Assembly: GCA_964626635.1 (NCBI GenBank)
Contig: CAZVFY010000001.1
Span: forward strand, 112,498-176,497
Length of the DNA stretch: 64,000 nucleotides
Origin: an uncultured Candidatus Saccharibacteria bacterium
GTDB lineage: Bacteria > Patescibacteriota > Minisyncoccia > Phycocordibacterales > UBA918
Reading direction: 5' to 3'
Shown here: positions 4,242-50,696 of the stretch, piece by piece
Layout: each line of letters opens with the position of its first letter
Position numbering within the stretch: the first letter of the stretch is position 1
The notes under the pieces: model-generated
What the model saw: the letters and a program-made list of their open reading frames with translations, nothing else
Told to the model about the DNA's origin: nothing
The model's database searches: none
Made by a program: the position numbers and the translations under genes

Positions 4242-4287
4242 ATGTATTATGCTAGCACGCGCCACCCTTCCGAACGGCGCTAGTCCA

Positions 4288-16200: not shown

Positions 16201-19200
16201 GATATCGCGACCATCGCTCGCCACGTCAGTCCAGAACGCAGCCCCTAACGTACTGAGGTCGAGATAGATCGGAAAATTAGTTAGGGTGCTGTCGATCTCG
16301 TCGGCATCAATCACGACTGGGACCCTACGACCAAAATCCTCGTCCGAGTACCAGTCGCTCGAGCCTGGGATGATTGGTGGGTACACTCGGTCGTCTTCGA
16401 CAATCTCGACGATAGACGTACCAGCGTTAAACGACCCGTTATTAATCCAATCCCCACCAACCGAGATGGTGTTACCAGTCCCGCCCACCAAGGTATCGTT
16501 GTTGCCGATCACCACATCGTACGCAGCCACATCAGTCACCGCTGTCACTGTTAAATTGGCGCCGTCGATAGTGACGTTACCGATGTTTTGGGTGCTAGGA
16601 CTGTTGTCAGTCCAGGTGTGCGAACCGGTTCCGTTAAACGTGGTGGTGCCGGTACCCTGCCAGTTACCAGTCGCTCCGGTGAGCACTGACCCAGCGACCG
16701 CAATGTCACTCTCACCCCGATCAAACACCCCGGAATTGACAGACAAGTCACCCGAGAGATCAAGCGCTACATCAACCGTGATGGTAGCCGTAGCGCCAGT
16801 ACTGATGTTGAGGGTGTGGAAATCTAGCGGGATTTCGGTACTAGTGATCGTCTCGGCTGTGCTGGCTGCCGTAAAGGTAATGGTCGATGTGTCGGTTGAA
16901 CTAGTCGCGTTGTTGTCGTACGAACCGCTGAGAGTAAAACTATTGTTGTCGAGCTCGATGGTTCCGTCATTAATAAAGTCATGCGTGCTCACACTCACCG
17001 CGGTCGACGTCGCCGGCACGTAGCGCTGGCCCGGACCAACGTACAGATTGGCGTCGGTACATGTACCGCTACCGCAGACAGCCAAGTTATTGAGGCCATC
17101 AACCGCGAACAAGATATCTTCGTCGTCAGTGTTGTCGTACAGACCTAGTAGTTGGTTGGTAATGGTGCCTTGTTCGTCAGCTACGAATGATACGTGCTGC
17201 TCGTACAGCGCCACACCGGTGATATCACCCAGTCCGTCATAGACGAAACTGGTTACAGCTTCGTCCTGTTCGTCTGCCCCATCTACCCACACAGTCACAA
17301 TCTGCCCGTTAAATGCGGTTACGTTTGGCAATGTCCAGGTGCCGTTACTGACCACCCCGACACCACTGACCGGCACGCCATTTACCGCCGCGCGGACTGT
17401 CCCAGTAGTCACATTGGTAGTGCGGTCGTACTCCTGCAAGCTACCAGACATATTGACTCCCTCACTCCACTCTAGCTGCCAGTCATCTAAAGTTGGGCAG
17501 CTACTGCCAACGCACTCGAGAGTTGCGAGCGCGCGGATCGTGTCGTAGGTGTTAATGTCAACGCCACTAAGATCAATCGGACTAGTGGTAAAGCCCGTTG
17601 CATTGCCAGGGATTTGACTATCTGGGACGAGTGCATAGACACCCTCGCTCACGCGATATTGTAACTGAATGCGCACCACACTGGATGCTGGGGTGGAGGC
17701 GTTCCAGGCAAAATTCGCAAACTTTGGTCCAGCCCCATCCGAAAAGATAATGTCTTCGCCGGCAAACGTCCCGCTGAGTCCCCCACTATCCTGTCGCCGT
17801 AAGATTCCCGTGTCACTCTCGAACGCAAGTAAACTGACAGTCTCATCACCACCGTGCGCATCAGCACGGCTACCGACCTCAATCACACTAGCAAAGAGGT
17901 TGGTGTTGGACTGGGTACCCGATAGATCCTTGAGCGCAAAGCTACCATCCCCACCACCCTCAGAGTTTTGTTGCAGGAGCGTAAAGCCTGGCATTGTCGT
18001 AAAACCACTGAGATTGAAATTATGACCGCCATTACTAAATGAGTCTTCAACATCATTGAAGGCTCGACCGGTATCGAAGCGGGTGCCATTATTCGTACCA
18101 CTCCCTTGATCCATCAAAACAAAATCAACATCTTCTCCGCTCGAGTGCGGCAAGTCGGACATACTCTTGGCTAAGGACAGGCGAATCGAGCCCCCGGTCC
18201 ATTCATTACTGCGATTACCTGCGTCTAGGTGGGCTGATACCCACGTACTATCATTGACAGTCACGATGGTCGCAAACGCTAAGGGGTTGGTGCCGAAACT
18301 CGTACTGATCGGCACGGTTAATCCGGTACCATTATCGTATGGTTGTCGGATCAAGTCAGTCGATGCCAGACTTTCTGTTCCAGCCAGCAATGTAATGCCG
18401 CCAGCACCGTCATCAAGCTCCCACTCACCGGCTTCTAGCACCAAGTAATCTACAACAGTCGTACCACTGAAGCCGTCGTGATCGTCAACCTTGATTTCAA
18501 AGCCGGTGGCAGTTTTATTGCGAATGCGAGGCGTGCGGCCGTCACCTTGACCCGTCACGTTGTATTCCGGTGATGCCACGACAACCATATTGTCATAAGT
18601 GCGACTGGTCGTGATTGTTTCCCAAGCATTATTGATCAAGGTCACGGTGCCGTATTCACCAATCTCGTTTGTCAGGCTGACAGCTCCACTGGTGGTGGCA
18701 ACGGTGCCATTGAAGAAGCCCTGACTAAACTGATCCTGCGTAGTCTGGAACCAGGTCGACTCGGTGGTGGCTGTGTCAATAGTGAACGAATCAGGCTCGG
18801 ACCATGGCGACCACGCATTACCCCCGGCTGGATCCTTGGCGCGAGTGCGCCACCAGTACGTAACACCATTAGCGAATGGCGTACCGCTCGGTGTGTCAAA
18901 GGTGACACGTTCGCTCGAGATAAATGGTGACAGATCACTGCCGTTTGACTCATTGACAAACTGTGTGCTCACACCTGAGTTATACGTGGTAGTCGCACCG
19001 GCAAAATCAAAGTCCGTACTAAAAGAGATTTCGTATTCTAGGTCGTCGCCTTGCGGATCGGTAGACACAAAATCAAACGTTGGTAGCGTGTCTGCAGTCT
19101 TCTGATTATCGAACGGATCACCCTGTATCGGCACTTCAACCCGTTGCCCCCAACGCACTTGCCAGTTATTGAGGGTGACACTACTGCCGCTGAGATTGGC

Positions 19201-22200
19201 AACTAACCGGATTTCGTTGTACTCCCGAGTATCTAAATCGATCAAGTTAACTGGGCTGGTTGTAAAGCCAGTAGCATTACCCGTCAGTGACGCATCAGGC
19301 ACTAATTGCCAGGTACCATTATTGTTGTATTCGATCTGCACCGAGAACGAGCCAGTCGTCACTGTCGCATCCCAAGCTAATTCGCCCCACGCGTTGCCGA
19401 TCGTCGCATCGTCAAAATCGATGGCGGTGCTGGTGATGACGCCTGGACTACTGACCAAATCAGCGCCGCCGGTGGTGGTGGCGACACCAGTAAGCGCATT
19501 AGTAGCAAACTGACCACCAGTTGTCTGCAGCCATTCGCTGGTCGTCAATGTGGTGTCTGTAGTAAAGCTAAACGGCGCTGACCAATCACTGAATGCACCC
19601 GAACCATTTGGATCACTCGCGCGTACTCGCCACCAATAGGTGGTGCTGGAAGCGAGAATACTACTGCTGTCAAACCGTACAGTTGCACCCGAACTAAATG
19701 GGGCCTTATCTGCGGTTGCGCTTAAATTAGTAAATGATAGTGGACTGGTGAGCGAATTTGCCGACAACACGACTGAACTGAAAGTGCGGTTATCATCAAT
19801 CTCAAGTTCGTAGTGGATATCATCACCCGCAATGTCGTTGGCGACAAAGCTGAGCGACGGTGTTATTTGAGTAGTGTGTTCGTTGTCAAAGAATGACTGT
19901 AAGAGCGGCACGTTAGGTGGTCCGACCGTTTCTAATTCTGGGTATGAATCGTACGAGTCAAAAGTCTCTCCATTGGCGCGAATCATCCGGAAACAGTAGG
20001 TTTGGTTGACATCAATGTTATTAGTGAGCAGCACCCAATCCCATTCCATCACAGTACTTGGGCTAAACTCAACGGGATTGAAATTAGACAAGTTGCGCTC
20101 TTCGTAGGTGCCGGCGTCAGTTGAACTCGCTAGCAGCGTGCCTGGCAAAGTATTGCCGTCACTCACACTAGGATTATTAAACCCGGCAAACGCAGCGGTC
20201 GTACTCCCAACGCCACCCACCAGTTTCCAGTCGGTCGCGAGTCCACACTGACCGACAGTGGCAGGTGCGTACTGCAGTGCAAAGGCCTCGGTACCCGCCG
20301 TCGAAGTGGCGTTCCCGCCAGCCACGTTCATGCGCAGACGCAAAACATCGCCGGTGTTCACGGCTCCAGCGCCGGTTATTGAGTCGCCCTCGCTCACGAA
20401 TTCTGTCGAATTAATTGCCCAAGTAGTTGTTAGGTTCAGTGCAGCAGTATTCTGATACCAGCCGAAGGACAACTGCGTGTATTCAGGGCCATTCGCCTCT
20501 TGTTGCGCCAATGCACGGAAATTCGCGGCGCCGGCACCAAACTTACGCGCCTGACGTGGACCAAGGACGTTCTTTTCATCTTGATCAATCGACACGTCCT
20601 CCATAATCATATAGAACGGTCGATCGTTGGTCGCGCGTACTAATGTGCCTGCCGCAAAGTTTGCCCCATCACCGCTACCAGTGCCATTAGTGAAGTACGC
20701 TTTGCCGGGCGTGTTCGCCCCAGGACTACAGGTGCCGGTTTCGATAGTCACACCCAATGCCGTAGTGACTTCAAGTGACACGGCGCCGTACTCGGGTGCA
20801 CACACTACCGCGATGTAGGCGGTAGCGCCCGTGAGCGCGTATTGCGTGCTGAATTCGCTCGTTGGCCAGAACATTGTGGCTTCGTTACCGTCACTGTCGG
20901 CCTGCTGTGCAAAGCTAACGCCCGAACTAGCTCCCGTGATACGCACCGCTGACCCAGCTCCTTCGCTACCATTAGTACAGGTTTCACCATTTACTTCAAT
21001 ATCACCTTCAGTCAAACCAGAGTACGTACCAGTATTGCCGTCAGAACAATAGTACGTTGGATTGGCTGCGTCAGCCAATCCAATCCCCACTATATTGTCA
21101 GAGTCAACTCCATACAGATCATCGGTTGTGGGTTCAAGCAGCGTCAAACCATCACCCGGGTTGGTACTGCGGTGAGTGGCTAGAATAGGTACGTTTGATT
21201 CTATACGCATTCCCTCCCCATCTTGTACAGCAGAATCAGTCCCTTGGGGATTGGTGTTTGATACTGCCACCGCACCACTACTGAGTACGATGGTGTCGTC
21301 AGCCGTGGCGCTGTCCCCCAAGAAAAAGTCAACCGTCGCGGTGCCAAATGGCGCGTACACATATGTGCGATTTTCATTGCGCGCTGTTGGCAACACATAA
21401 CTGGTGGTGGCAAACGAAATTGGAACTAATACATCGCTACTATCGCCGCTATCTGTAATTACCGCCGCTGACACAGGCCCGAATGTACTGAGGGCTGAAG
21501 TGCCGTCGTACGTTGTAAAAGTAGCCTGCTCACCACGATTCAGGCTGACGGCTGTACCACCATCTAGCTGTACTTGGTTATTATCTACGAGACTTACGAC
21601 AGATACTGTACCAGCACCATTATTGTCTACGACATAATAAGACTCAGTGAGTGCGTCGTACGAAAAGGTGTCTAGCTCGTTACTTGCGCTCTCGGCGCCA
21701 CTATTACCATAGTACGCATAAATCAGCGATCCAGCGGCCTCTATGTTCGCTACTTGTACCCAAACTACCGCTTCGTCAGCTGTACTGTCCCAGGACTCAA
21801 TCCAGAAATCTAGTTCAGTGAACTCAGTAATTGCGAGAGTCTCTGCCGTTGAAGTGGAAAAGAATCGAGCATTATCAGCCATGTTTTCGTACTCGGTTTC
21901 CGCCCAACCAGCACTGCGCACCACCTCGGCTATACGCAGCTCATCGAGCTGTCCAATCAAACGCTGCTGATCGTCATACGCGCCATTAACCGCATCCTGC
22001 TCTTGTCCAATGACTAATCCACCGTTTGGAATATCAAAGGTATCAGTCATTGATTGTGTATCGGGATTTTCATTATCCCCTTGACCATCGACGTATAAAT
22101 TAACTTCGTCAGTCGCTGTGTTTCCCGTCACGACATAGTGCTGCCACTCGCCGGTATTGAACGTACCTACTGTATCATCGAGATTAAACAACTCGTTGCC

Positions 22201-25200
22201 CGTATTGTAGTATGCGCGGAAGACGTTTGGATCCGAGAAGAACATCGAGAACTCATTGTTATTATCAAAGTTCGCCCCACTCAAAATAGAGAGGTCAATT
22301 GATTGGGTTGTATTGTGCCACCAACTCACAGTGTGATTGCCGATTCCATCAATGATGTCGTTCGGTGGTTCGATCGCATCGTTGACACCGGCTCCAAACA
22401 CGGCGCCCCGCCCAAACAGACCACTCGTATCAGTGTCAGTATTATTATCGTCAGCGTGGTACCGGTTACTGGTGGAATCTAGGTACACATCTGGATTGTT
22501 GATCCCAGCCGCGAATTCTTCAAAGTGATATACTGCCCGAAAATTATTGGTCCAGACATTCTCACTTCCAAAAGTCGCATTACGTTCATACGCAATTGCA
22601 TCTTCATTATCATAATAGATGTAAAACTCGTTATTATCACCCCGCCCAAGATCAGCCTTGAAGTACAACTCGCCAGTATTATCAGTTGTATTGATATTGA
22701 CAAGTTCAATCGGCAGCTCGGTGACTCCGTCACCAGTCGTAATACGGATATCACTACCGTCGTTCGCGACACCGTTGAAGAAGTCATTACCAAGAATTGA
22801 CAAATCAAGGTAAACCGGGAAATCGGTTTGCGTACCGCTAACCCGACTGTCTGACGCAGTAAAGCGCTGACGACTTTCCCAACTAGTGCTGTACCAGTTG
22901 CGAGTAGCCGCGTTGTCTGGCGTCTGCACACCGCTGGTGACATAAAAGTCGCTGGCGCTGCTAAGGTTCGCGGACTCGGCGCGGACGAACGCGACCGACC
23001 GCGGCGCAATCCGAATACGCAATTCGTCTAGCTGCCCGTCCCAGTAGCGCCCTCCACCCTCACGACCGACATTAAAACCGTTACTATTAGTGTTAGATGG
23101 ATTGGCGGTGACTTGCACGGCCGTGTCTTGGAGAAAACCATTTTCGTACCAGTAATTTGTCCCACCCAATGTTGATGTACCAATTGTACCAAACCCCCGC
23201 CAAATACTAGTATCACGAGGTATAACCCGACTCTGTGCCGTATTATTATCAGTACCAAAGTAATGCAAGCCATTTGCAGCGTTGTACCACGGTCGAAATT
23301 CAATGTCATTAGGTTGATCACCGTTTCCCCACTGCCAAATCGCACCGTTATCAAAGCTCGACATAAAGTATGAACCACTGGTCGTCAGCGAGTCCCCGCC
23401 ATTAAATAGCCAGGTGGTCGACGCCGCCCGAGCGTTCGCACCTCGCAAGTCAAGCGCAGTGCCAAAGAACCCGCTGCTAGTGGCCATATCAGCGTTTTGA
23501 ATAACCAAGTCGTTACCGTTACCCGTCGCATCAGCCAGGAATGCACCCTGCGACACATCTGTATCATTGAAGTGATACACGGCGTCGTACTCGATCCACA
23601 CCGCCTGGGCGCCGAGCGGGTCAGTCGCCGCATATGGCATCAGCGTACTATTACCAAAGTACACGTAGAACGTCGTCGCGGCCGATGTCGGAATAATTGG
23701 AGCCAGGAAATGTAGTTCACCTGTTTCGGCTACAGTGTCGATAGACGCGAGGTCAATTGCTAGCTCAGTGCCGGCGCTCGTGTAAACCCGGATATCACCC
23801 CCATCGCTGCGTACGTTATTCCAGAAATCACTACCAAAGTCCGCCAGACTGACGCTAATTGGGAAATTGGCCAGATCAGCGTCGGCCGCGCCAGCCGGTA
23901 TCTCAAGCGGGATACGGTGCGTAAAGTCAAAGTCAAGCCAGTTATTGATGGCGGTGGCCTCGTTGCTAAAGTTACCAGCCATAGTTTCTTGTACGAACCG
24001 CAAGTCATCTCCGTCGGCGTCGACGTTCGTCCAGAAATCGTTAATCGCAGAATCGAGAGTGAGGCGGACCTGGAACTCTGTCTGGTCAGTACCAGTTGGG
24101 TTATCAACTTGTAGCGGCATTCGGTACTGCCAGTCTGATGACCAGAACGGGTCAAGGAGCCCGTACTCGCGATTACCAATGGCTTCCACCCAGTACTCGC
24201 CAGTACTAAACGGCGGGAAGCTAATATCCATCTTGAAATAGCGGGTTTCGCCCGGTGCAATACTGAACTGGTCTGGTGTGTACACCCGTCCTTCGAAATT
24301 GTCGGGTACGTCTTTGCGAGCCGGGCGCAACCCAAAGAACGCAGCTGTCCGCGCGAGCACCCCCTGCTCGGTACCCATCCCAGCGTTAGTAGTGACCGGA
24401 TCCCAACCACGGGCGTACTGCGTGACGGTGTGGTCTTGAACTTTTTGGGTGACGATACAAGCGGTTCCCTCACCCTCGATCACTTCACAAGTTCGCGCCA
24501 GATTAGTGCCCGGGCATGAATAAGTAGTTTCCGTGTCCGTTTCATTAACTGTAGTAGTGATGGTGCCGACGGCAGTATTCGCTGCTGCGGTAGTCATCGA
24601 CAACGCCAATTCGGTGGTAGTAGTTGGGCTGAGCTGACTACTTGTCGCACGTTCAGTAGTCAGGCTGTTAAGTGAATCAACTGGCTCGTCCACTGCCCAG
24701 CCGGCTTCACAGTGATACACGTACGGCCGATATTCTGGAATGACCGCCTGTCGGGGTTTGTTGAGACTGAAGACTTCTAGATTAGTGACTTCACCCACAT
24801 TGTTGGGGAAATACGTTTGGACACTAAATTCGTCAGCATTGTCACTGGTATTCGTGACGCTAAAGTAGGTCGTGACTTGGGACAGCCCTTCGTACGTTTT
24901 TTGATCTGACTTGATGATGAGTGTTTCGTCGTCGTTGTTATCGGTAAACGTAAACTGTACTTGCTCGCCGTCTGGTAGTGTCAAGGTGTCACCAGAGAGA
25001 TTGCTGTCGATAAAACCAGTGTTCTCGATCAGCTGGTCAAATGGCGTTGGTTCGGTATTCTCTGGTGGAGTCAGTACAAATAATTCTAGCCATGCGCTCT
25101 CGACGAACAGTTCACGGACAGTTGCGTCATCATGATCAAATCGTAATTCGACCACTACGTCGCGCAGCATAGCTGGATCGGTAATATCTGGTAGCGCGTA

Positions 25201-26610
25201 CAGGTAGTACCCACCGTTGACACTGTTGGATACCTCATCATCAATGATGACCGAGCCGCCAGTACTCCATGATGCACCCTGATCGAGGGAGTAGTTGACC
25301 GTCAAGGACGGCACCTCGTCTTGGGCATTGTTGCGCAATGCTGCGAGTGATAATCGTAGTTGCGCACCAGACAGAGTTGACCCCTCATCGAGCGGGTAGC
25401 CAAAGTTTGACAGGCGCATGGTATACTGACCACAGTCATCGCAGGTTAAAGTCGTCTCGTCATTTACGTCTGCACTAAAGTCAGTGATTGATCCGGCTGC
25501 CTCGCTTTCAGTGTCCGTATTGTCGACATTGCCAGATCTGGCTGCAGACGTGGTGGCAGTAGTGCCCGCATCATCAGCAGTGGTAGTGCCTGCAGCCGTA
25601 GCTGGTTGCGCCGGTACATTCGGTAGCGAAGTGCTGGTAGTAGCACTAGCAATGGCATTAGGATTGCCAGCCTCAACCGCATCTGGAGCCACTGGCTCTG
25701 TGACGGCGCCCGTCACTGTACTGGTGGCATCTGTTGCCGCTGCAATGTCCACAAGTTCTGGTGAGTCTAAGGCTGCAGTGTCAGCACTCTGCGTCGCCTG
25801 AGGTGCGTCAGCCACATCTATTTCAACAGCATCCGGGACAATCATAGCTTCAGCGTCGGTGCTCACCGCTGTCGTTGTCGCATCAAGCAGCAATCGACCG
25901 AGTGATGGTAAGAACACTGAAATGGTGCTAGTGCCAGCGTCAGGAGCAGTGTCTGTCGTAGCGTTTATCTCGATTGAATCGGTTGAATTATCAATACTCT
26001 CCTCTTCAATAGGAGTGGCAGGCGTGAGCGCGTCATTTGAGCCCGTTTGAGCGTTGTCAGACGGAACAGCATCGGCAACGGTGTCCGAATTGGTAGGCTC
26101 AGTATCCGCTGCTGCTGCTGATGCGTCGTTCGTCTCAACAGCAGACGCGACGTCAGACGTACTCGTGCTCGTACTAACAGCACTTTCAGTTTGACCGGAC
26201 GCAGTGGTAGTTCCGTTTTCTGGCAGGTCTACGAGCTCTGATGATCCCTGATTTGTTATTGACTCAGTACCCTCACCAGACTCTTGTGGCGGCTGGCCAG
26301 CTTGATCGAGAACATCGTTTGGGCCTGCATTGCCATCTACAGCTGGTTCATAATCTGGATCTAGCGTGGCTGAGTTGATGGTATTGAAATCTTGCAATAA
26401 TCCATACTCGTCAACGTTTTGGAACGTAACCGTTTTTGCATTTAGAAAACCTTCTGAGACAACCGCGGCAGGAAACACGTGTACGGTTTTTACAGTGTAT
26501 GCGCTCTGCATCAAATTTGCATACGACGAAAACGCTCCTCCCAATATGAGAGCAGCCAGCAACGCGTAGACAACATACTTTCTGGTACGTTTTGCGTTGT
26601 TCCGAATCAT
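4288..26610 (-). CDS. giant modular cell-surface protein (7,440 aa): signal anchor, acidic low-complexity stalk, DUF2341-like/LamG-like modules, FN3 domains, beta-helix-like modules
   Basis: Single uninterrupted 22,323-nt ORF. The ATG is confirmed at 26608-26610, preceded by SD AGGTGAGGT. The N-terminal hydrophobic helix is YVVYALLAALILGGAFSSYA. G(Q/L)LDE(L/V)R(I/F) LamG-like motifs recur. FWNNVRSDGGDIRV-type DUF2341-like motifs occur six times. YWWR(V/T)RA FN3 motifs occur twice. Every opposite-strand ORF inside it is short and composition-driven. Confidence 0.85.
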   Translation of the reverse strand: MIRNNAKRTRKYVVYALLAALILGGAFSSYANLMQSAYTVKTVHVFPAAVVSEGFLNAKTVTFQNVDEYGLLQDFNTINSATLDPDYEPAVDGNAGPNDVLDQAGQPPQESGEGTESITNQGSSELVDLPENGTTTASGQTESAVSTSTSTSDVASAVETNDASAAAADTEPTNSDTVADAVPSDNAQTGSNDALTPATPIEEESIDNSTDSIEINATTDTAPDAGTSTISVFLPSLGRLLLDATTTAVSTDAEAMIVPDAVEIDVADAPQATQSADTAALDSPELVDIAAATDATSTVTGAVTEPVAPDAVEAGNPNAIASATTSTSLPNVPAQPATAAGTTTADDAGTTATTSAARSGNVDNTDTESEAAGSITDFSADVNDETTLTCDDCGQYTMRLSNFGYPLDEGSTLSGAQLRLSLAALRNNAQDEVPSLTVNYSLDQGASWSTGGSVIIDDEVSNSVNGGYYLYALPDITDPAMLRDVVVELRFDHDDATVRELFVESAWLELFVLTPPENTEPTPFDQLIENTGFIDSNLSGDTLTLPDGEQVQFTFTDNNDDETLIIKSDQKTYEGLSQVTTYFSVTNTSDNADEFSVQTYFPNNVGEVTNLEVFSLNKPRQAVIPEYRPYVYHCEAGWAVDEPVDSLNSLTTERATSSQLSPTTTTELALSMTTAAANTAVGTITTTVNETDTETTYSCPGTNLARTCEVIEGEGTACIVTQKVQDHTVTQYARGWDPVTTNAGMGTEQGVLARTAAFFGLRPARKDVPDNFEGRVYTPDQFSIAPGETRYFKMDISFPPFSTGEYWVEAIGNREYGLLDPFWSSDWQYRMPLQVDNPTGTDQTEFQVRLTLDSAINDFWTNVDADGDDLRFVQETMAGNFSNEATAINNWLDFDFTHRIPLEIPAGAADADLANFPISVSLADFGSDFWNNVRSDGGDIRVYTSAGTELAIDLASIDTVAETGELHFLAPIIPTSAATTFYVYFGNSTLMPYAATDPLGAQAVWIEYDAVYHFNDTDVSQGAFLADATGNGNDLVIQNADMATSSGFFGTALDLRGANARAASTTWLFNGGDSLTTSGSYFMSSFDNGAIWQWGNGDQPNDIEFRPWYNAANGLHYFGTDNNTAQSRVIPRDTSIWRGFGTIGTSTLGGTNYWYENGFLQDTAVQVTANPSNTNSNGFNVGREGGGRYWDGQLDELRIRIAPRSVAFVRAESANLSSASDFYVTSGVQTPDNAATRNWYSTSWESRQRFTASDSRVSGTQTDFPVYLDLSILGNDFFNGVANDGSDIRITTGDGVTELPIELVNINTTDNTGELYFKADLGRGDNNEFYIYYDNEDAIAYERNATFGSENVWTNNFRAVYHFEEFAAGINNPDVYLDSTSNRYHADDNNTDTDTSGLFGRGAVFGAGVNDAIEPPNDIIDGIGNHTVSWWHNTTQSIDLSILSGANFDNNNEFSMFFSDPNVFRAYYNTGNELFNLDDTVGTFNTGEWQHYVVTGNTATDEVNLYVDGQGDNENPDTQSMTDTFDIPNGGLVIGQEQDAVNGAYDDQQRLIGQLDELRIAEVVRSAGWAETEYENMADNARFFSTSTAETLAITEFTELDFWIESWDSTADEAVVWVQVANIEAAGSLIYAYYGNSGAESASNELDTFSYDALTESYYVVDNNGAGTVSVVSLVDNNQVQLDGGTAVSLNRGEQATFTTYDGTSALSTFGPVSAAVITDSGDSSDVLVPISFATTSYVLPTARNENRTYVYAPFGTATVDFFLGDSATADDTIVLSSGAVAVSNTNPQGTDSAVQDGEGMRIESNVPILATHRSTNPGDGLTLLEPTTDDLYGVDSDNIVGIGLADAANPTYYCSDGNTGTYSGLTEGDIEVNGETCTNGSEGAGSAVRITGASSGVSFAQQADSDGNEATMFWPTSEFSTQYALTGATAYIAVVCAPEYGAVSLEVTTALGVTIETGTCSPGANTPGKAYFTNGTGSGDGANFAAGTLVRATNDRPFYMIMEDVSIDQDEKNVLGPRQARKFGAGAANFRALAQQEANGPEYTQLSFGWYQNTAALNLTTTWAINSTEFVSEGDSITGAGAVNTGDVLRLRMNVAGGNATSTAGTEAFALQYAPATVGQCGLATDWKLVGGVGSTTAAFAGFNNPSVSDGNTLPGTLLASSTDAGTYEERNLSNFNPVEFSPSTVMEWDWVLLTNNIDVNQTYCFRMIRANGETFDSYDSYPELETVGPPNVPLLQSFFDNEHTTQITPSLSFVANDIAGDDIHYELEIDDNRTFSSVVLSANSLTSPLSFTNLSATADKAPFSSGATVRFDSSSILASSTTYWWRVRASDPNGSGAFSDWSAPFSFTTDTTLTTSEWLQTTGGQFATNALTGVATTTGGADLVSSPGVITSTAIDFDDATIGNAWGELAWDATVTTGSFSVQIEYNNNGTWQLVPDASLTGNATGFTTSPVNLIDLDTREYNEIRLVANLSGSSVTLNNWQVRWGQRVEVPIQGDPFDNQKTADTLPTFDFVSTDPQGDDLEYEISFSTDFDFAGATTTYNSGVSTQFVNESNGSDLSPFISSERVTFDTPSGTPFANGVTYWWRTRAKDPAGGNAWSPWSEPDSFTIDTATTESTWFQTTQDQFSQGFFNGTVATTSGAVSLTNEIGEYGTVTLINNAWETITTSRTYDNMVVVASPEYNVTGQGDGRTPRIRNKTATGFEIKVDDHDGFSGTTVVDYLVLEAGEWELDDGAGGITLLAGTESLASTDLIRQPYDNGTGLTVPISTSFGTNPLAFATIVTVNDSTWVSAHLDAGNRSNEWTGGSIRLSLAKSMSDLPHSSGEDVDFVLMDQGSGTNNGTRFDTGRAFNDVEDSFSNGGHNFNLSGFTTMPGFTLLQQNSEGGGDGSFALKDLSGTQSNTNLFASVIEVGSRADAHGGDETVSLLAFESDTGILRRQDSGGLSGTFAGEDIIFSDGAGPKFANFAWNASTPASSVVRIQLQYRVSEGVYALVPDSQIPGNATGFTTSPIDLSGVDINTYDTIRALATLECVGSSCPTLDDWQLEWSEGVNMSGSLQEYDRTTNVTTGTVRAAVNGVPVSGVGVVSNGTWTLPNVTAFNGQIVTVWVDGADEQDEAVTSFVYDGLGDITGVALYEQHVSFVADEQGTITNQLLGLYDNTDDEDILFAVDGLNNLAVCGSGTCTDANLYVGPGQRYVPATSTAVSVSTHDFINDGTIELDNNSFTLSGSYDNNATSSTDTSTITFTAASTAETITSTEIPLDFHTLNISTGATATITVDVALDLSGDLSVNSGVFDRGESDIAVAGSVLTGATGNWQGTGTTTFNGTGSHTWTDNSPSTQNIGNVTIDGANLTVTAVTDVAAYDVVIGNNDTLVGGTGNTISVGGDWINNGSFNAGTSIVEIVEDDRVYPPIIPGSSDWYSDEDFGRRVPVVIDADEIDSTLTNFPIYLDLSTLGAAFWTDVASDGRDIRITSGDGQTELPHDLVEFDGADDTGELHFLADSVSATTDTSFYVYFANAAATAYAPTAQFGSQAVWAQYEAVYHFNDDVSATGNVVADATSNARDLVVTDNALATTSGQLGVGLNLESLNGYLNNPDFDWTAGDALVTSGWYLMDNADGGAYYQFGTGGNPNTINLRPWSGGGTGGGDGDFDFGDADGFNINPRNTTSWNQFFFVGTTVSGSSNRYYQNAILRDVANQTVNSPSNNDGFEVGRLGGGTTYFDALIDELRIATTTRNTAWIEAEYTNQNTPSIFYSAGVAESFQPDVVVDEATHNIAGGGSAFYTLRLNDASTTPVFTEPSLVVADDFIVATGTVALPTGTLTVGGSFTNNASFMHNNGTVLFNGAGTETITLGGTPFTNILNDVTFAGSGAWSVTDANATTSGQFAIQNGAVTMPTGTLAIGDTMNVTGGSFAHNDGSVRFYSDESINIITGGSAFNDVTFGAGGSFDWFDAAWTRRQQLTISASNLNATLTSFPVYVDLSDLGADFWSNVASDGADVRVTNSDNVQMPVELVSIDTDAETGELHFRADTLLATTDTVFYLYHNNGAASAPAPSSMYGRNNVWSNGYEAVFHLEETGDGTAGEFIDSTGNGYDGQGGAGAAVDVPTRTNGLLGSAQDFENSDNGDFIDLNTAMITGLEGANTKSVSAWSNVESWSDAGGLWNLGGSQTLQDYTVRVNDTNQWRAQHWDGDNTFAARPFGEWQHVALDYDGSDVRTYVNTINEDTIGRSLNTQDVSGYGVLIGRWRTGNYFDGLLDEVRFSSVSRSADWYAAEYANQNSPSTFYTADSQSLSADSQVFRLNEVNTNALGDVTINGVQLVAPTNNFNIGGSALNTGGSYNANNATTTFNSTDTGEVVAFGAAPFYNLVFDGVGGGWTVATNTVENRAVLQTGASFTQQPNTTLTVAGVFENRFAAAATTWTDSTLVLTGGDYVVTDRLDSGDDYANVSVSEDSDVVIWNSTIATSTIADSSSIYMPDYGGTDGLLRIYGQYDRTSGTEHWSYATDFDGTDLTGGSERAAQVRVANGGVVRIASTSALSALGSATASSTVDALAGNYSTVLSGSTIDARYLEVTNTDVAGVQLRDGATLGTFTDIEFAIATGTALTIDAATIEADPSRELNHIAFSTVTGAPHNVTLDDIPAAFWIFKTGTGNRYGESFDNDDGDPGAIQWSDSSFNIAVSGTIFQADTVTPMSAPVCNGVTEVVTVVVDGITTYRAPCSPLDGSYTVTGISYTGEPKLATYLESTAPNNSFVQAEIMSEVTGIGVSQPDFTVTRPEAIDGSVLVAIISKDDDPAITPPAGWTQIAGAGTGADDDIYTGVWYRVVSDASAEPANYTFTTVDNNERYQYWIGALVNVDTTNPLDVSSGVTQLVDDQTPAVPSVTTTAAGGLVLSSWFVDNDAAVDYPTSPDFVTHTEYVPNADNNNFNVVSQRLAVAGATDPLEAVGVNGGRDPHVITFAMRAATGATASGTATAAAITKTPIGATGDTFETITLTGEASGAENVVAGGTLALTRPATQDGDVLIAIIGKEDDPEITPPAGWTAISTLADTTQNDIFTGAWYRIVTNAASEPAAYDFISNGVNTQEHSYWIGSYDNVDTDVVVDAPAAWVKRVDDSTPAAPSVTTVSGGAEIIAAWFVLPELSVDVPSLPWQIRVRNLQVGTTQRNLTVLNRQQAVVGSTGDVMISSIGGGDETHTIQIALRPERISVANAIRNMNLYQDHVVVRHEDSDPLTISDMNLFDNTDDSDVPFVIGTSPDSLTVLAGNGLAVFDGKTFTPGGPVTLSGAGSTIADGSFRIGQSATYLSTTTDGLAVGGSFYVDAGGVYSGASSTVTFGASNPVSISAVGSSTIAIHDVIFAGSGMYALQTPLIVDTDVAVNSGTLTGVSDLTVENGDLSGAGVVDMIDGTVTLGSDNTFGSATPWSFYNLTFGSGAVAGVTTPATGSVVTTINNQLRIASGHFLDAGSTSWNLTGSGTVFDEQGTFLEDTATIRYSGVTPNVTQTAYYDLQIDAGVGSTTLATAPATGLQVLGDLQIGQTGSSTLRLDTNNPTLGVNQDLVIGTNGTLVASAVTPINVFGGWTNDGQFIANGGLVELLNATGTVAINAGDSAFYDLDIAGAGDFVFSESATSTNDTRLLSGSVTVNSAEQLAVGGEFRNQLDNALTTWTGSTLHLFGGGAYVVNDKLDADDYATVRVSSSTQPRFWNSDYAAITTEPGSSLYSMDHDQVIGDLHIYGDLRSDSFNDHWSYARDWDGASLATERIANVLVENGGSVLYTGGALTAAGTSTASTTIGVLGGTGTFDLTLGGTTTVDLHHYVVRDVTSDGLVLAGTPTIIELSHGDFVSPTIGASGITVGASVINANQARNFTGNGFSNASGGAAVNVKATGTPVSSWRFVNAFGNLVGEAFDADPDAGGDPGSIVWEDSAAIIDVTGRVYEADRTTVSNVCNGSTPNIRLSIQGLTFASTTCNATTGEYTFPGIGFGPSDTLTVYINDAGTEAATVTKDPISLIGNLDLYESHVIVRHESSDPMTIEAMSVYDSSNDSDIPFTATTGAVDTLTLAADTGLIIWNDKIFAPGGDVILPGGSIATHSGSLELFAGATFDGGTHAYSIGGSLLSDSAATFDAETSTTTFTSSATGRTIDTNDSGFHSLVLDGLGSWTIIDSEGDINQDLIINRGTLTLPAATTTVSGSFVNTGGSFNANAGALVLDSIEANQHIQFGGSAANRVEFTGSGSWAFLDTNSTTTDDIIISSGLVTLPSGTLEVAGNFIASSTIAHNGGTLLLTDTAGGNELTLGGDDAGTVQISAAGGDYTLTDSDATLLGSLTLTNGVFTSGSGTLAVGQSFDVSGGTFNNNGGTILLNGATSGLFIDTGNDNDFNNLVVAGSGAWTLVGSATTTNNFSLQTAGGFTVAPDSSVYVGGVFSNTVGGAATTWTDTTLVLDGANRYEVGVKTTATETYGTLQIGANSNISFWNSSAATTSVPLSSSLYSQDHAGSDGALNIYGSYTIATTTEHWSAATDFDGANISDRPVTVRIASSSSVILDGGVLNILGVTGATTTITNQGTGQYALIAQAGTLNAEFYDITNIDSDGLQLLLGVGVTSLSNGSFTQTSDGASLITLTPITINSNPNLVVTDTAFNAGGFSGGVNVNLSATTTNSWNFTGAIGDLWGEAFDIDGTDLCSSVRWDDSECLLIEQSNYRWRNDDGGEGAPTGTWYDDDWGQRQRIRVVNNNPTAVATTAVKLPVIYDADMQTDFDDVRVTLADGVSITPHWIERFQSGVDATVWFQAPALNDDVTEFYLYYGNLAANSSSDADQVFDTVEDFESSGLTPYDGDISLFNIGNSFAFGGALGLDTDGNEQQRATDGIARDGVTVSAGQTIRYMQYIDTSAGANDEVCTLFAVQSQMQDNNNYGLCVQQPGVDRISLVRDVVDTEASGTILESSSAIFTTGWYEFVIDWRVDGAMQVAMYDINGTLIADLSAIDTTYSSGGIGFTYWFQHGGWDSYVAYPRIGALPTVYLGDEQLDGGATWAGDQNTPTGGFSFGSVARLRVGIENTGLPIENQNFEIEFAPKLTAATCEAVPATNYAPVPTVASCGTSAICMANSTEVSNGDATSDHLVTDAGDFSAGEIVSNTGNRSNNLNLGQNRYTELEYALTLTTSAANDAYCFRVTDSGDELDAYNNLPELTLAFDPVISEVSLNDGLDIQLTAGTTTLITASTTVTDFNGVADLASATTTFYKTTANSNCTPNDNDCYIATSTCSFTACTGNSCSLQCTIPMVYHADPTDFDAGEEWFAFIEVSDQSGAADLRSSMGVELLTLRALDVQNAIAYGTVDVAQDTGTNNPNVDLINVGNENIDVQVAGTDMSDGIASVIPAGQQRFATSSFNYAACLGCATLSVLGTNVEVDLPKPVATDPPTTDQIFWGIEVPFGTASNPHTGVNTFTAVPD
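10990..12340 (-). repeat. tandem pair of ~200-aa homologous domains inside the giant ORF (approximate coordinates)
   Basis: Protein segments DGSVLVAIISKDDDPAITPPAGWTQI...VWYRVV...EPANYTF and DGDVLIAIIGKEDDPEITPPAGWTAI...AWYRIV...EPAAYDF. The PPAGWT codons were located at ~12215 and ~11505, about 710 nt apart. Confidence 0.6.
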
Positions 26611-26651
26611 CTATACTTACCTCACCTGTAGAGCTAGGATCGGTTTATGCA

Positions 26652-26688
26652 GTATACCGCGCAATCCCCTCAGGATTCCGCGGTATAC
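26652..26688. promoter_or_regulatory. long palindrome in the giant-gene upstream region; candidate operator overlapping a putative -10 (TATACT)
   Basis: GTATACCGCG c AATCC cctca GGATT c CGCGGTATAC: perfect 10-bp outer arms (26652-61 / 26679-88) plus a 5-bp inner stem. It lies 42-78 nt upstream of the ATG at 26610. The minus-strand TATACT (plus 26651-26656) overlaps the left arm. No U-tract follows in either orientation. Confidence 0.4.
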
Positions 26689-26725
26689 GCTCAATATGTT
26701 GATAAACAAACGTTATTTTGATGGT

Positions 26726-28258
26726 TTACTTTAGTATTGCCTTCACATCAGTAATCTCTTTTTCAATCAGTGTTTCAGATACTTCAAGTGCCTGAGTCAA
26801 ACCTTCTACAGCTTCTTTCTCGTTCTGTGATAATCGCTTGCGTTTAGTAATGTGGTTGATCTGATCATAAATTTCGTCGCGCAGCGCTGAGAATATTTTT
26901 TCCATCTGATCCTGTATCTCGCGTGTTTCGCGGCGCAGCTTGTCCTCTTTAATTTTAAGCGTTTTCTTCTCGTACCAGACATAGACACTCATAAGTCCTA
27001 GTGCAACAATAAGGAAGCAGATCAATAAATTTACAAATGTGAGATAGTCCAGCAAACTTCGTGACTCTTCGGCCTCGAATGGCTTGACCCAGCCAGCAGT
27101 AACCAAGGCAGCGGATGCAGCCTCGCGAGTGTTGCCAGCGAGATCGTGGGCTACTACGGTGACTGAATATGTTCCATCTTCAAGGTCACGTAGTAAATAG
27201 CCTAACTGAGCCTGCTCCGGAGTGATGGTCTCAGGTTCGTTCGTGCCAACGGTAACATCGTAGCGATCAATACCCGAAGTAGTATCTTCGGCCGAAAACA
27301 GTAGCGTTGGGAACGCGCTGCGGTCATTACCTGGCCTTACCTCAATTGAAAATGGTTCGGGTGGAGTAGTATCAATTCTAAGTAAACGATTAGTAACAGC
27401 TCCCCATCCAACTTGATTTTGGAAGCTGATACTGACGTACTGCTCACCCTCTAATGCATTATCTGCATTAACAGTAAAATCTTCGATGGGTGGGTCGATG
27501 ATCGCACCTTCGTTCTCATGAGGCACGTTGTTAGGATCATCGCTGATCTCTACCGCAATCGCAGTCACATCAAATGGTAATGACCAGCGAAACTGTCCTA
27601 CTACACTGCTGTACCACTCTGCAGCCTCAAGAAAGACCGGTGAACCAATTTCTGGCGCCCTGGGTGGATCACCAAAAATAATTGCGTCTCCGCTCGTCGG
27701 GTCACTTGTTTCAGTTGGGGCTGATTCTTCATTTAGCGCGCTCGGTGTCGGGGCCGTAGCCTGAGCGAGGGTGTACTGACCACCGCTGCCTCCAGCGTAT
27801 ACATCCGTCCCTAGCCCATCAGCAGCTAAGACAGAAGCTTCAGCAAACGACACCCCGGCATCGCCCTCTCCAATCACTCGAAAAGTTACATTGACTACCG
27901 TAGAGCTAGTCGTGAACGGTTGTGGGCTACCACCGCCAAAGGTGATAGTCCCAGCGGTATTAGAAAATGTCGGCTCAGTCGTCCACAGTGAAAATACCGA
28001 ACCATTTTTATCTACGCTTACCACCGATAACTGGGACGGATCGAACCCTAACGTTGCTTCAACTGCGTTCACACTGTCGCCACCAGGTACTGCTCGCACG
28101 GTGGTGGTGAAAGTTTGGCCACTATTATAAGTACCGGTACTGGGCGAAAGATTGAGGGTAGCTGCACTCGCAGACCACCCAAGACCCAGCAGTACTATAA
28201 TAAATACAAACCTGCTCACTATCCGTAAAATATCATTTTGTAAAATTAGCTTATGCAT
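26726..28258 (-). CDS. membrane-anchored surface protein with N-terminal cohesin-like domain, FN3-like region, one TM helix and cytoplasmic coiled-coil tail
   Basis: Signal peptide, then ATLNLSPSTG...VNAVEATLGFDPSQLSVVSVD...GTITFGGG...VVNVTFRV, which matches the cohesin beta-sandwich pattern. TM LICFLIVALGLMSVYVWY precedes a K/E-rich helical C-terminus. Confidence 0.55.
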   Translation of the reverse strand: MHKLILQNDILRIVSRFVFIIVLLGLGWSASAATLNLSPSTGTYNSGQTFTTTVRAVPGGDSVNAVEATLGFDPSQLSVVSVDKNGSVFSLWTTEPTFSNTAGTITFGGGSPQPFTTSSTVVNVTFRVIGEGDAGVSFAEASVLAADGLGTDVYAGGSGGQYTLAQATAPTPSALNEESAPTETSDPTSGDAIIFGDPPRAPEIGSPVFLEAAEWYSSVVGQFRWSLPFDVTAIAVEISDDPNNVPHENEGAIIDPPIEDFTVNADNALEGEQYVSISFQNQVGWGAVTNRLLRIDTTPPEPFSIEVRPGNDRSAFPTLLFSAEDTTSGIDRYDVTVGTNEPETITPEQAQLGYLLRDLEDGTYSVTVVAHDLAGNTREAASAALVTAGWVKPFEAEESRSLLDYLTFVNLLICFLIVALGLMSVYVWYEKKTLKIKEDKLRRETREIQDQMEKIFSALRDEIYDQINHITKRKRLSQNEKEAVEGLTQALEVSETLIEKEITDVKAILK

Positions 28259-28755
28259 GAATATACTTGATTACTTTTGTTTGAACGCATTCGGGAAGCT
28301 GTCTTTGGTTTGCTACTACCGACCTTGAGGGTGACCTTTGATTTCTCACTCGCTTTAAGGAGAGGCAGTGTGAGCACTAACACACCGTACTTAATCTTGG
28401 CATCCGCTTCATCGATGTTGACTGACTCAGGTAAAATGATACGGCGATAAAATTCGCCCCACTCGCACTCTTCAGCCACAAACGCACCAGAAACTTTTTT
28501 ACGCGGGAAAGCTATGTGTTCTGGGCGGGTGCGACGACCCTCAATTAGCACGATGTCGGCGTCACCCTCAATGGATACATGCACGTCTTCCATATCAGCA
28601 CCAGCACACTGTGCGTACACGACGATCATCCGTTCTGTTTGGTAGACATCAACGTGTAGTTGAGCAATCTTGTCCGCAGCGGTTTCTTCTGAGTCGGATA
28701 GAAGACCATCATTTTCACGCACCCCCTTACCTTTTAATCGCTGCAGAAAGGACAT
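28246..28755 (-). CDS. Hsp20/alpha-crystallin family small heat shock protein
   Basis: Alpha-crystallin domain pattern DVYQTERMIVVYAQCAGADMEDVHVSIEGD...GAFVAEECEWGEFYRRIILPESVNIDEADAKIKYGVLVLTLP, ending with the typical GVL.LTLP motif. Confidence 0.8.
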   Translation of the reverse strand: MSFLQRLKGKGVRENDGLLSDSEETAADKIAQLHVDVYQTERMIVVYAQCAGADMEDVHVSIEGDADIVLIEGRRTRPEHIAFPRKKVSGAFVAEECEWGEFYRRIILPESVNIDEADAKIKYGVLVLTLPLLKASEKSKVTLKVGSSKPKTASRMRSNKSNQVYSCIS

Positions 28756-28812
28756 ATATCAATAGTATACAAAGTTTAGTTCTGTCAATGCGTGGTTTAC
28801 CCACACAAGCGA

Positions 28813-32196: not shown

Positions 32197-32244
32197 ATTG
32201 CACTAGTGTAGCAGCCGCAGAGGATTAAATATTTCTGTATACAC

Positions 32245-32278
32245 AAAACCACCCAGGCCGGATGGTCTGGGTGGTTTT
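32245..32278 (-). terminator. bidirectional Rho-independent terminator after the WxL-like gene
   Basis: AAAA CCACCCAG gccggatggt CTGGGTGG TTTT: perfect 8-bp GC-rich stem with a 10-nt loop, flanked by an A-tract and a T-tract, immediately 3' of the minus-strand CDS ending at 32328. Confidence 0.75.
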
Positions 32279-32327
32279 GATGCTCTCAGTGACTAATAGA
32301 TTCAGCCAGTGTAGCGGGTGCGAGCAA

Positions 32328-41291: not shown

Positions 41292-41301
41292 AGACTTTTC
41301 T

Positions 41302-42647: not shown

Positions 42648-42659
42648 CCGTAATTCGGG

Positions 42660-43025
42660 TTATCCAGCCACAAACACCTCCTCATCATTCACACACGACA
42701 CCATTTGCCACATATTGGCGGCGTCGTACGCCACCTCATGACATTGCTCTAGCGCAGCTTCTTTCGAAAGTGATGCGGCAGACTGGTTTAGCATGACTTC
42801 ACCATCAACACTGATCACAAAGGTGGCCGCTGGAGTGGTGCTGACACTAGCTAGTAACAGGGCTTGGACGCGGTTTATTTGGGCAGCAATCCATTGCAGC
42901 TGTACCATTATTTCAGATTCACTGCGAACCGATGGTGTAAAGTCTTCATTCGCAATTGTGCTAACTGGGTATACAAAAAGAATCCCACTCATGATTGCCA
43001 ATACTACTATGTATTTCATATACAT
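42660..43025 (-). CDS. small secreted protein, hypothetical
   Basis: 121 aa with signal peptide MKYIVVLAIMSGILFVYPVSTIA. No recognisable domain. Confidence 0.35.
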   Translation of the reverse strand: MYMKYIVVLAIMSGILFVYPVSTIANEDFTPSVRSESEIMVQLQWIAAQINRVQALLLASVSTTPAATFVISVDGEVMLNQSAASLSKEAALEQCHEVAYDAANMWQMVSCVNDEEVFVAG

Positions 43026-50614: not shown

Positions 50615-50696
50615 AGATATTAATTAGTTTGTACTTTTATTATACAACAAAACACTGGCGTAAACCAGCGTTTTATACGCACATTTAGTAGTTAAC

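Follow-up and report, generated by a model that had tools for sequence, protein, structure and literature searches.

We propose that the 37-nt palindrome at 26652-26688, located between a cohesin-domain gene and the giant gene, supplies the hairpin of a composite terminator–promoter module that would insulate the giant-gene promoter, and we give this reading a probability of about 0.5. Positions are those of the window, the whole 64,000-nt (64-kb) stretch of DNA that was analysed. To our knowledge, almost nothing is known of gene control in the uncultivated, host-dependent Patescibacteria. The element described here is a lineage-conserved cis-element and precedes two likely host-contact gene sets, namely those for a 7440-aa surface protein and for a type IV pilus motor.

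Hairpin-forming palindrome at the cohesin-to-giant-gene junction

All genes near the palindrome lie on the minus strand. Read in the sense direction, the stop codon of the cohesin-domain gene is followed by ATCAACA, the hairpin, the T that completes TATACT, a 40-nt stretch containing AGGTGAGG, and the ATG of the giant gene. The features of the region are as follows.

28246..28755, minus strand: Hsp20-like gene, overlapped by the cohesin gene
26726..28258, minus strand: gene for a cohesin-domain membrane protein of 510 aa, stop codon at 26728-26726
26697..26703, minus strand: upstream element ATCAACA, the window variant of ATCC[A/C]CA, 40 nt upstream of the -10 TATA
26652..26688, minus strand: hairpin P1, with 5' arm 26688 to 26673, loop 26672 to 26668 and 3' arm 26667 to 26652 (from the repeat search, folds and orthologues)
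26651..26656, minus strand: TATACT, putative -10 hexamer, its first five bases being the last five of the P1 3' arm
26619..26644, minus strand: predicted 5' leader with the weak hairpin P2 and the Shine-Dalgarno sequence AGGTGAGG at 26627 to 26620 (from the intergenic fold)
4288..26610, minus strand: giant gene, 7440 aa, with LamG, DUF2341 and pentaxin-type domains, ATG at 26610

The overlap of the cohesin gene with the Hsp20-like gene suggests that the two form an operon. The cohesin-domain protein is 55-69% identical across Paceibacteria, and its named homologues come from Candidatus Kaiserbacteria, Paceibacteria and Nomurabacteria, all of them Patescibacteria. An identical locus is present in Logan run SRR7428105. 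The window also encodes GroEL, BipA, RNase J and UmuC, which mark its source as a bacterium, and it belongs to a Patescibacterium of the Paceibacteria/Kaiserbacteria type.

On the plus strand, positions 26652-26688 read directly as GTATACCGCG-C-AATCC-CCTCA-GGATT-C-CGCGGTATAC, the whole being GTATACCGCGCAATCCCCTCAGGATTCCGCGGTATAC. The repeat search finds here a palindrome with a 5-nt loop and 16-nt arms containing one mismatch, hence a stem of 16 pairs, 15 of them Watson-Crick. The hairpin of the sense (minus) strand, P1, is GTATACCGCGGAATCC-TGAGG-GGATTGCGCGGTATAC (26688-26652). Its predicted folding energies are -28.4 kcal/mol (z = -6.5) for the RNA and -18.9 kcal/mol (z = -8.9) for the DNA. 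The real window contains two palindromes of such quality, compared with none in 40 shuffled windows, and the palindrome is far above the chance level. It lies 42-78 nt 5' of the giant-gene ATG and 38 nt 3' of the stop codon of the cohesin gene. The 37-nt palindrome before the giant-gene start is thus present in all the details given in the earlier note, as judged from both the sequence and the repeat search. The overlap that the note saw between one arm and the -10 candidate TATACT is likewise correct, the 3' arm of the sense strand entering the hexamer at 26656 to 26651, and the lack of a U-tract agrees with our terminator scan, which leaves the site unflagged.

Further copies of the element are scarce. 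In the 64-kb window, GTATACCGCG with at most one mismatch has three matches, compared with 4.7 expected, and two of these are the palindrome itself. The half-site has no copies in 739 kb of related loci besides the orthologous site, and a scan of the same 739 kb for a hairpin combined with TATAMT found the orthologous site alone. A search for other copies of the half-site, which the earlier note had proposed as a way to uncover a regulon, therefore gave a divided result: exact GTATACCGCG has no further copy in the window, and related copies do occur before pilB in related genomes. With Rfam 15 at gathering thresholds, tRNA alone was matched in the window, and permissive Rfam scans of the window region and one related locus (L041) yielded nothing close to its gathering score. 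A dispersed repeat of the REP or MITE kind was considered and rejected, as the window holds a single copy and the element is confined to the cohesin-to-giant-gene junction among 80 related loci.

Covariation and the folded strand

A scan of species-representative genomes provided these 80 orthologous loci. A homologue of the giant protein is encoded downstream in 74 of them, with colinear positions. The earlier note asked whether the site is conserved upstream of giant-gene orthologues; of the 74 loci with a giant-gene homologue, 72 have a strong hairpin of 13-20 bp downstream of the cohesin stop codon and ahead of the giant gene. In an alignment of 75 intergenic regions (A2), the stem base TATA-n-CGCG ... 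CGCG-n-TATA is conserved, while the upper 6-7 pairs are variable between species yet complementary. The helix is also predicted by RNAalifold, with both partners changed in 9 of its 11 pairs; at pair 71-86, for example, 22 sequences have AU, 22 CG, 20 GC and 7 UA. Over a helix of 15 pairs, 93.3% of 1103 cells are standard pairs, compared with 29-49% in controls whose partner column was displaced by 1-3 positions. Covariation scores 0.59 in the helix and at most 0.12 in these controls, and none of 500 shuffles reaches the observed value. Taken together, the covariation clearly indicates that the hairpin is selected as a structure across about 75 related species-level genomes.

The persistence of complementarity in the variable upper stem points to a folded single strand rather than to a palindrome read by a protein. 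This bears on the operator that the earlier note had favoured, in which a dimeric transcription factor would bind the half-sites TATAnCGCG and CGCGnTATA and repress or activate the giant gene. The outer 9 nt of each arm are indeed conserved in sequence, and similar half-sites occur at the pilB hairpins of three loci (L160, L202 and L205). A protein-read site, however, needs no complementarity in its variable centre, and here only the stem base is conserved in sequence, whereas the inner 6-7 pairs vary but remain complementary; on this ground we reject the operator. Further points weigh against it: its 3' half is explained by the -10 together with the GC-rich stem base, and its 5' half is less conserved than the 3' half; the half-site centres are about 26 bp apart, or ~2.5 helical turns, which would place them on opposite faces of the helix; the palindrome is absent from several pilB promoters and from L057 and L078, all of which keep the -10; and the window holds no other copy of the half-site. 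We regard such an operator as very improbable.

Mismatches within the stem give an indication of which nucleic acid is folded. The arms were aligned with Watson-Crick scoring alone for this count, and among 91 distinct hairpins the internal non-Watson-Crick positions comprise 30 G-T cells (28 contexts) and 9 A-C cells (9 contexts). A G-T position is a wobble pair in the sense RNA and becomes A-C on the other strand, so that a two-strand cruciform should avoid both equally. The G-T bias favours a fold of the sense strand, most simply as RNA, although the sequences counted are phylogenetically related. The G-T positions are also oriented: in 24 cases T is on the 5' side of the stem and G on the 3' side, and in 6 the reverse; this one-sided orientation is not explained by an RNA hairpin alone. 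The alternative suggestion of the earlier note, an RNA structure in the 5' leader, holds with respect to the folded-strand signature. It does not hold with respect to position, as the hairpin would occupy about -13 to -48 if TATACT is the -10, which is outside the leader of the giant gene.

Putative promoter around the hairpin

The hexamer TATACT is located 40 nt before the giant-gene ATG. Its TATA, within the 3' arm, is invariant in 75 of 75 sequences, and its final T is invariant in a 55-sequence alignment, which gives the consensus TATA[A/C]T. By these alignments, nothing in the intergenic region is better conserved than TATA[A/C]T. In the outermost pair, by comparison, the base on the 5' side is paired in only 46 of 71 sequences. 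As TATA is invariant and its 5' partners are less conserved, the 3' arm appears to be under a constraint beyond pairing. In its base pattern (T at -12, A at -11, T at -7), TATA[A/C]T agrees with the -10 hexamer of sigma-70 promoters, and would thus be a candidate -10; it is preceded by CGn. The promoter scan found no TTGACA-like -35 hexamer 16-18 bp before the -10, where the window has GGAATC, part of the variable upper stem on the 5' side. TTGACA does occur at other promoters of the window.

A second conserved element, ATCC[A/C]CA, is near-invariant in the 75-sequence alignment and stands at one of two distances from TATA:

Long class: motif-to-TATA spacing of 41.0 ± 0.7 nt, 55 loci, including the window
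Short class: motif-to-TATA spacing of 31.5 ± 0.7 nt, 20 loci

The classes differ by about one helical turn, and the ~10-nt step between them may be a single ancestral deletion. In two loci with a decayed hairpin, L057 and L078, the distance from motif to TATA is still 31 and 32 nt. Since the spacing is kept after the hairpin has decayed, motif and -10 would form a unit independent of the hairpin, as expected for a promoter at the DNA level. These comparisons give firm grounds to regard TATAMT and the motif spacing as conserved independently of the hairpin. Neither ATCCACA nor TGTGGGTAA is enriched in the window.

Two other promoter arrangements were examined and discarded. If ATCCACA were a -35 brought near the -10 by cruciform extrusion, the residual distance would suit the long class (about 14-18 bp) and would fail in the short class (6-8 bp). 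A promoter above the motif, with the TAAAAT of the cohesin stop as its -10, has an unconserved last hexamer position and no counterpart at pilB.

From the position of the hexamer, we infer that transcription of the giant gene starts at about 26644, the 7th nt after the -10. The second hairpin, P2, begins 6-8 nt after the -10 hexamer, and in 67 of 75 sequences its foot is within 0-2 nt of the predicted start. The consensus of P2 reads AGCCCC..TTCTA..loop..GGGGTGGGCT, with a 3' arm bearing the Shine-Dalgarno-like GGGGTG or GGTGA. P2 reaches a mean z of -2.6 in the orthologues and is weak in the window itself (z = -0.3). With its start at the foot of P2, a transcript would have a hairpin at its very 5' end, which is known to stabilise mRNAs.

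The Hsp20-like gene is preceded by a conserved arrangement of TGTGGGTAA, about 27 nt, TATAAT, 8 nt and the ATG. The TGTGGGT found there is the reverse complement of ACCCACA and may be an inverted copy of the upstream motif. A small RNA with the seed AUCCACA that would pair with this UGUGGGU was rejected, given that the site lies upstream of the hsp20 -10 and shows no covariation.

A second locus upstream of pilB

A metagenome scan for the pattern TATAMCGCG-N8-24-CGCGKTATAMT returned 120 loci. About 22 of these are the same cohesin-to-giant junction, and most others are either chance palindromes of unrelated organisms (GC 26-71%) or an unrelated recurrent marine element. The only true second locus is L160, in which TCCACG-N42-TATACT and a 16-bp hairpin lie between clpP and pilB. 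By its named homologues, the PilB of this locus, a type IV pilus ATPase, belongs to Kaiserbacteria/Paceibacteria. Twelve further pilB loci were added to L160, and the 13 upstream regions were examined.

TATACT lies 9-18 nt before the pilB ATG in 13 of 13 loci, whatever the upstream neighbour and with no Shine-Dalgarno sequence. So close to an ATG of this kind, the mRNA would be leaderless or nearly so, and TATACT can only be a -10. In most of the pilB loci, T[CT]C[AC]C[AG] is found 33 or 39-42 nt further upstream; in L208 the motif is inverted and about 29-30 nt upstream. GC-rich hairpins of 13-17 bp with unrelated stem sequences are present in L160, L202, L203, L204, L205 and L208. In L160, L202 and L205, half-sites like TATAnCGCG flank the hairpin, and GCGAAGC, a sequence whose DNA mini-hairpin is exceptionally stable, forms the loop in several of the pilB hairpins. 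A covariance model (R1) built from the giant-gene modules alone finds the pilB modules of L202 (41 bits, E = 2e-4, a rough value), L160 (35 bits) and L208 (30 bits). This match indicates a promoter type common to at least two operons, and, as far as sequence comparison can establish it, the promoter type of the giant gene also drives the pilB operon.

The pilB loci also bear on an intercistronic RNA processing or stability element, which we consider possible though unlikely. The hsp20, cohesin and giant genes would then be co-transcribed, and P1, the A/U-rich linker UAUACUUAUAAU and P2 would make up a cleavage module. A single-strand-specific RNase would cut between the hairpins, or RNase III would cut in the P1 stem of 14-20 bp, so that the upstream mRNA keeps a 3' hairpin and the 22-kb mRNA a 5' hairpin, the two products differing in stability; alternatively, P1 would simply be part of a long structured 5' leader. 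Such processing is consistent with the conservation of both hairpins on either side of a conserved A/U-rich single-stranded stretch, with the read-through that is likely where P1 has no U-tract, with the sense-strand G-U bias that points to RNA, and with the RNase J gene in the window. However, TATA[A/C]T also stands 9-10 nt before pilB starts that have no Shine-Dalgarno sequence, including loci with a divergent neighbour, where it can have no role but that of a promoter. The -10 box and the motif spacing furthermore persist where the hairpin is missing, no conserved promoter was seen above the motif, and for an RNA element, there is no evident sense in a 10-nt step between the spacing classes.

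Hairpin presence and upstream context

Not every promoter of this type has the hairpin, and its occurrence varies with what lies upstream. The giant gene always has a close, co-directional neighbour upstream, and the hairpin is missing from L057 and L078 only. In these two loci, which keep the giant gene, a canonical terminator with a U-tract has been acquired just behind the cohesin stop codon. L005 and L076, which have no giant gene, carry canonical terminators, and the module is absent. Among 12 pilB loci, 8 follow a co-directional gene, and 5 of these have the hairpin; of the 4 with a divergent neighbour upstream, only L204 has it. The difference is not significant. As for the co-directional pilB loci with no hairpin, L209 and L210 have a canonical terminator upstream, and in L211 the promoter lies inside the upstream ORF; in L214 and L215, which follow an HTH gene across a 209-nt intergenic gap, there is neither a canonical terminator nor a promoter inside an ORF. 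In L160 and L202, a canonical terminator and the hairpin occur together, and in L204 the hairpin is present despite a divergent upstream gene. By these three cases, termination cannot be the whole story.

Canonical terminators with clear U runs do exist in the window, at 32244-32279, 50649-50674 and 53379-53405. Two of them stand directly before -10-like boxes: that at 50649-50674, which is followed by TGTATAAT, and that at 32244-32279. In related genomes, long and perfect GC-rich hairpins serve as terminators. At the junction itself, the 8 nt after the GC core contain 3-5 T across the 75 loci, with 4 in 53 of them; in the window, by our own count, there are 3 after the GC core (TATACTGC) and 2 after the full stem (TGCATAAA). 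With no canonical U-tract, an efficient intrinsic terminator is not predicted.

The loci that depart from the general pattern also concern a switch at the DNA level, which we judge improbable. Under negative supercoiling, the palindrome would extrude as a cruciform or single-strand hairpin, bury the first bases of the -10 and alter the geometry of motif and -10. Control of the giant gene and the pilus operon would thereby be exerted by supercoiling or by a protein that recognises the structure, with no classical repressor. The palindrome does overlap the -10, with five bases of the hexamer in its 3' arm, and fills the promoter, and the 24-27 nt between the CGCG blocks are fixed. The strong DNA fold (-18.9 kcal/mol, z = -8.9), the hairpin of L204, which has no co-directional upstream gene, and the GCGAAGC loops of several pilB hairpins would also fit. 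Set against this are the 30 G-T and 9 A-C positions, though a cruciform should make both equally rare, and the total linear distance from motif to -10, which is conserved as if read in B-form DNA. The hairpin is moreover dispensable in several pilB promoters, and in L057 and L078, which have a canonical terminator. GC-rich palindromes with short loops also extrude slowly. As a precedent, in E. coli, an engineered promoter of Horwitz and Loeb (1988) is reportedly regulated by cruciform extrusion.

Proposed mechanism of the terminator–promoter module

Within the composite terminator–promoter module that we favour, the promoter would be a DNA-level element, with ATCC[A/C]CA 41 or 31-32 bp upstream of TATA[A/C]T. 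The GC-rich palindrome would occupy about -13 to -48, between the upstream motif and the -10. The giant-gene transcript would start about 7 nt past the -10, at the foot of the leader hairpin that bears the Shine-Dalgarno sequence. As P1 lies upstream of this predicted start, RNA of P1 would arise only when polymerases read through from the cohesin-like gene. When a polymerase arrives from the co-directional hsp20–cohesin operon, the sense RNA would fold into P1, and the polymerase would then sit on the weak A/U-rich hybrid UAUACU (UAUAAU). We postulate that P1 ends or strongly pauses read-through, and that a protective 3'-terminal hairpin stays on the upstream mRNA. The promoter of the 22-kb gene would be insulated as an outcome, and the polymerase would possibly be handed over to that promoter. 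Termination and insulation at P1 are the predicted part of this scheme, and are suggested by the hairpin and its genomic context. The earlier note had named, as an outcome that would undo its proposal, that the palindrome is simply the terminator of the upstream gene. That is near to the explanation which we find best; the element, however, is also built into a conserved promoter.

A wider interpretation can be drawn from the same loci. A dedicated promoter class of the Paceibacteria would be defined by WTCC[A/C]C[A/G] and CGnTATA[A/C]T, the two being separated by about 31-33 or 39-42 bp, or by about 29 bp where the motif is inverted; its small regulon would comprise the giant LamG/DUF2341 protein, pilB-pilC and possibly hsp20–cohesin, a surface and host-contact apparatus; and the hairpin would be an active switch, not a passive terminator, acting either as a DNA that senses supercoiling or structure or through release of the read-through polymerase onto the next promoter. 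That class, regulon and switch all hold together is doubtful. If this were true, the element would be among the first cis-regulatory codes for the candidate phyla radiation.

For practical use, the analysis yields a testable promoter, with motif, -10 and predicted start, and a covariance model for finding more members. In annotation, the giant gene should be given its own putative promoter, and the palindrome should not be labelled an operator. The element is a natural case of a terminator-like hairpin and a putative promoter on the same bases, which bears on work on terminator–promoter coupling and on the design of compact synthetic insulators.

Comparison with known systems

Our search of the literature on Patescibacteria promoters and giant genes returned nothing specific. 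An architecture in Patescibacteria that is common to a giant surface-protein gene and a pilus operon appears to be undescribed in the literature searched.

The element resembles intrinsic (Rho-independent) terminators in its GC-rich stem-loop of 13-20 bp right after a co-directional gene. The covariation of P1, its tolerance of G-U pairs and its GNRA-like loops are further points of likeness, as is the replacement of P1 by a canonical terminator where it has been lost. It differs in its tail, which is an alternating UAUACU (UAUAAU) with no U run, and in the stem base, which is itself A/U.

The element also resembles sigma-70 promoters that have no -35 and need an upstream element or activator, such as class I-type sites and UP elements, all of which share the invariant TAnnnT of the -10. 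Class I-type sites are spaced by whole helical turns, and the conserved upstream motif occurs here at two spacings ~10 bp apart, with centres near -57 and -47; an A/T-rich linker is present at -42 to -53 in the long class. Unlike in activator-dependent sigma-70 promoters, the motif is a short asymmetric 7-mer, sometimes possibly inverted (at the Hsp20-like gene and in L208), and the spacer is a palindrome that forms a hairpin.

The hairpins of phage N4 promoters have 5-7 bp and are read by the phage polymerase, whereas the element here has a standard -10 box. An extrudable palindrome that overlaps or adjoins promoter elements is common to the element, the phage N4 virion RNA polymerase promoters and the cruciform promoter of Horwitz and Loeb (1988). 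Unlike in a cruciform-regulated promoter, the mismatch asymmetry seen here opposes a two-strand cruciform.

Coupling of promoters and terminators is widespread in bacteria, according to the abstract of a 2026 preprint ('Widespread coupling of promoters and terminators of transcription in bacteria', bioRxiv 10.64898/2026.08.19.745784). As in such coupled terminator–promoter elements, both signals lie here within the same few tens of bp. The element here is marked by a hairpin that lies inside the promoter and shares bases with the -10, by its occurrence in ~75 species-level genomes of an uncultivated class, and by its recurrence at a second operon. As a whole, the element is best likened to an intrinsic terminator that has no U-tract, fused to a putative -10-only promoter that has no -35 and would depend on an upstream element.

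Conserved cluster and the putative promoter region of the Hsp20-like gene

The cohesin-domain gene lies in a conserved cluster with the genes for a dockerin/Big_6 protein and an Hsp20-like protein. The features of this region are as follows.

26726-28258, minus strand: cohesin-domain protein
28246-28755: Hsp20-like protein
28813-30681: dockerin/Big_6 protein
28805->28797, minus strand: TGTGGGT-type element cTGTGGGTAA upstream of the Hsp20-like gene, conserved in orthologues
28769->28764, minus strand: -10-like TATACT or TATAAT of the Hsp20-like gene, conserved in orthologues

The C-terminal region of the cohesin-domain protein, past a predicted membrane segment, is exceptionally conserved, and most of residues 440-505 are invariant among the 24 species compared; this conservation suggests an essential interaction in the cytoplasm. 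Upstream of the Hsp20-like gene, the promoter-like arrangement (window 28764-28805) consists of cTGTGGGTAA, a spacer of about 27 nt and TATACT or TATAAT, followed after 8 nt by the ATG (28755). It is kept in about 65 of 74 orthologous loci, at positions of approximately 3350-3500 in L002-L081. The arrangement implies that the hsp20 mRNA is leaderless. The sequence TGTGGGTAA upstream of this gene often falls within an inverted repeat that is small and variable. Reverse-complemented, TGTGGGT reads ACCCACA, a sequence similar to the giant-gene promoter motif ATCC[A/C]CA.

The pilB promoter region in relatives

In Kaiserbacteria/Paceibacteria genomes, pilB, the type IV pilus ATPase gene, is followed by pilC. 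An invariant TATACT is positioned 9-18 nt upstream of the pilB ATG, without a Shine-Dalgarno sequence (L160, 2220-2280; L202-L215, approximately 1400-1500). The giant-gene-type upstream motif and a GC-rich hairpin are often present in these regions, and three of the pilB hairpins share the loop GCGAAGC.

The two ends of the giant gene

In many orthologues, the giant-gene start codon is preceded or overlapped by a two-codon start-stop (ATG-TAA-TG, GTG-TAG-TGA) resembling a minimal upstream ORF. The window's own copy has no such start-stop.

Examples of start-stops at orthologous giant-gene starts
L013, L021, L041: GGGTTGTTATGTAATG
L009, L014, L067: TGTGTAGTGAA

At the 3' end, the giant ORF (4288-26610) is overlapped by a mechanically called ORF.

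2724-4535, minus strand: fibronectin-III / purple-acid-phosphatase-like ORF, start GTG

The called GTG lies 248 nt inside the giant ORF, and the real start is probably further downstream.

Recurrent elements in metagenome loci

Among the metagenome loci found by pattern scan, low-GC contigs carry a recurrent element composed of TATAACGCG, about 18-26 nt, CGCGTTATAAT and then GGAGTYGCAGTGTA. Many of its loci are marine; the element does not fold into a hairpin and has no relation to the cohesin locus.

Loci of the recurrent elements
TATAACGCG/CGCGTTATAAT element: L088, L093, L114, L133, L141, L147, L155, L156, L158, L168, L182, L185, L187, L195, L198, L199, L201
Second variant, ending TATACTGAAATGAGGCTG: L100, L111, L146, L161, L184, L194

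Terminators and sigma factor

The window contains canonical hairpin-plus-U-run terminators.

50649-50674, 32244-32279 and 53379-53405: terminators

The terminator after groEL is followed directly by TGTATAAT, and that at 32244-32279 by TGTATACA. Close packing of terminators against -10 boxes is thus a general feature of this genome. Related Kaiserbacteria-like contigs bear very long perfect palindromes after genes, with stems of 20-28 bp (L202, 520-590; L160, 1420-1480); some lie between an A-run and a T-run, and they appear to be the local style of bidirectional terminator.

Approximately 14 kb from the palindrome upstream of the giant gene, a sigma factor gene is followed by that of a 284-aa protein without a Pfam match, possibly an anti-sigma factor.

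41302-41934, minus strand: ECF-type sigma factor (Sigma70_r2 + r4_2)
40437-41934, minus strand: the pair
42650-42700: TTGACA - 17 nt - TATAGT - CA - ATG, upstream of the ORF at 42660..43025 (minus strand)

No link was found between this pair and the motif-hairpin-TATACT module, the putative giant-gene promoter. The sequence at 42650-42700 reads as a textbook sigma-70 promoter that would yield a leaderless mRNA; it shows that this organism does have canonical -35 elements.
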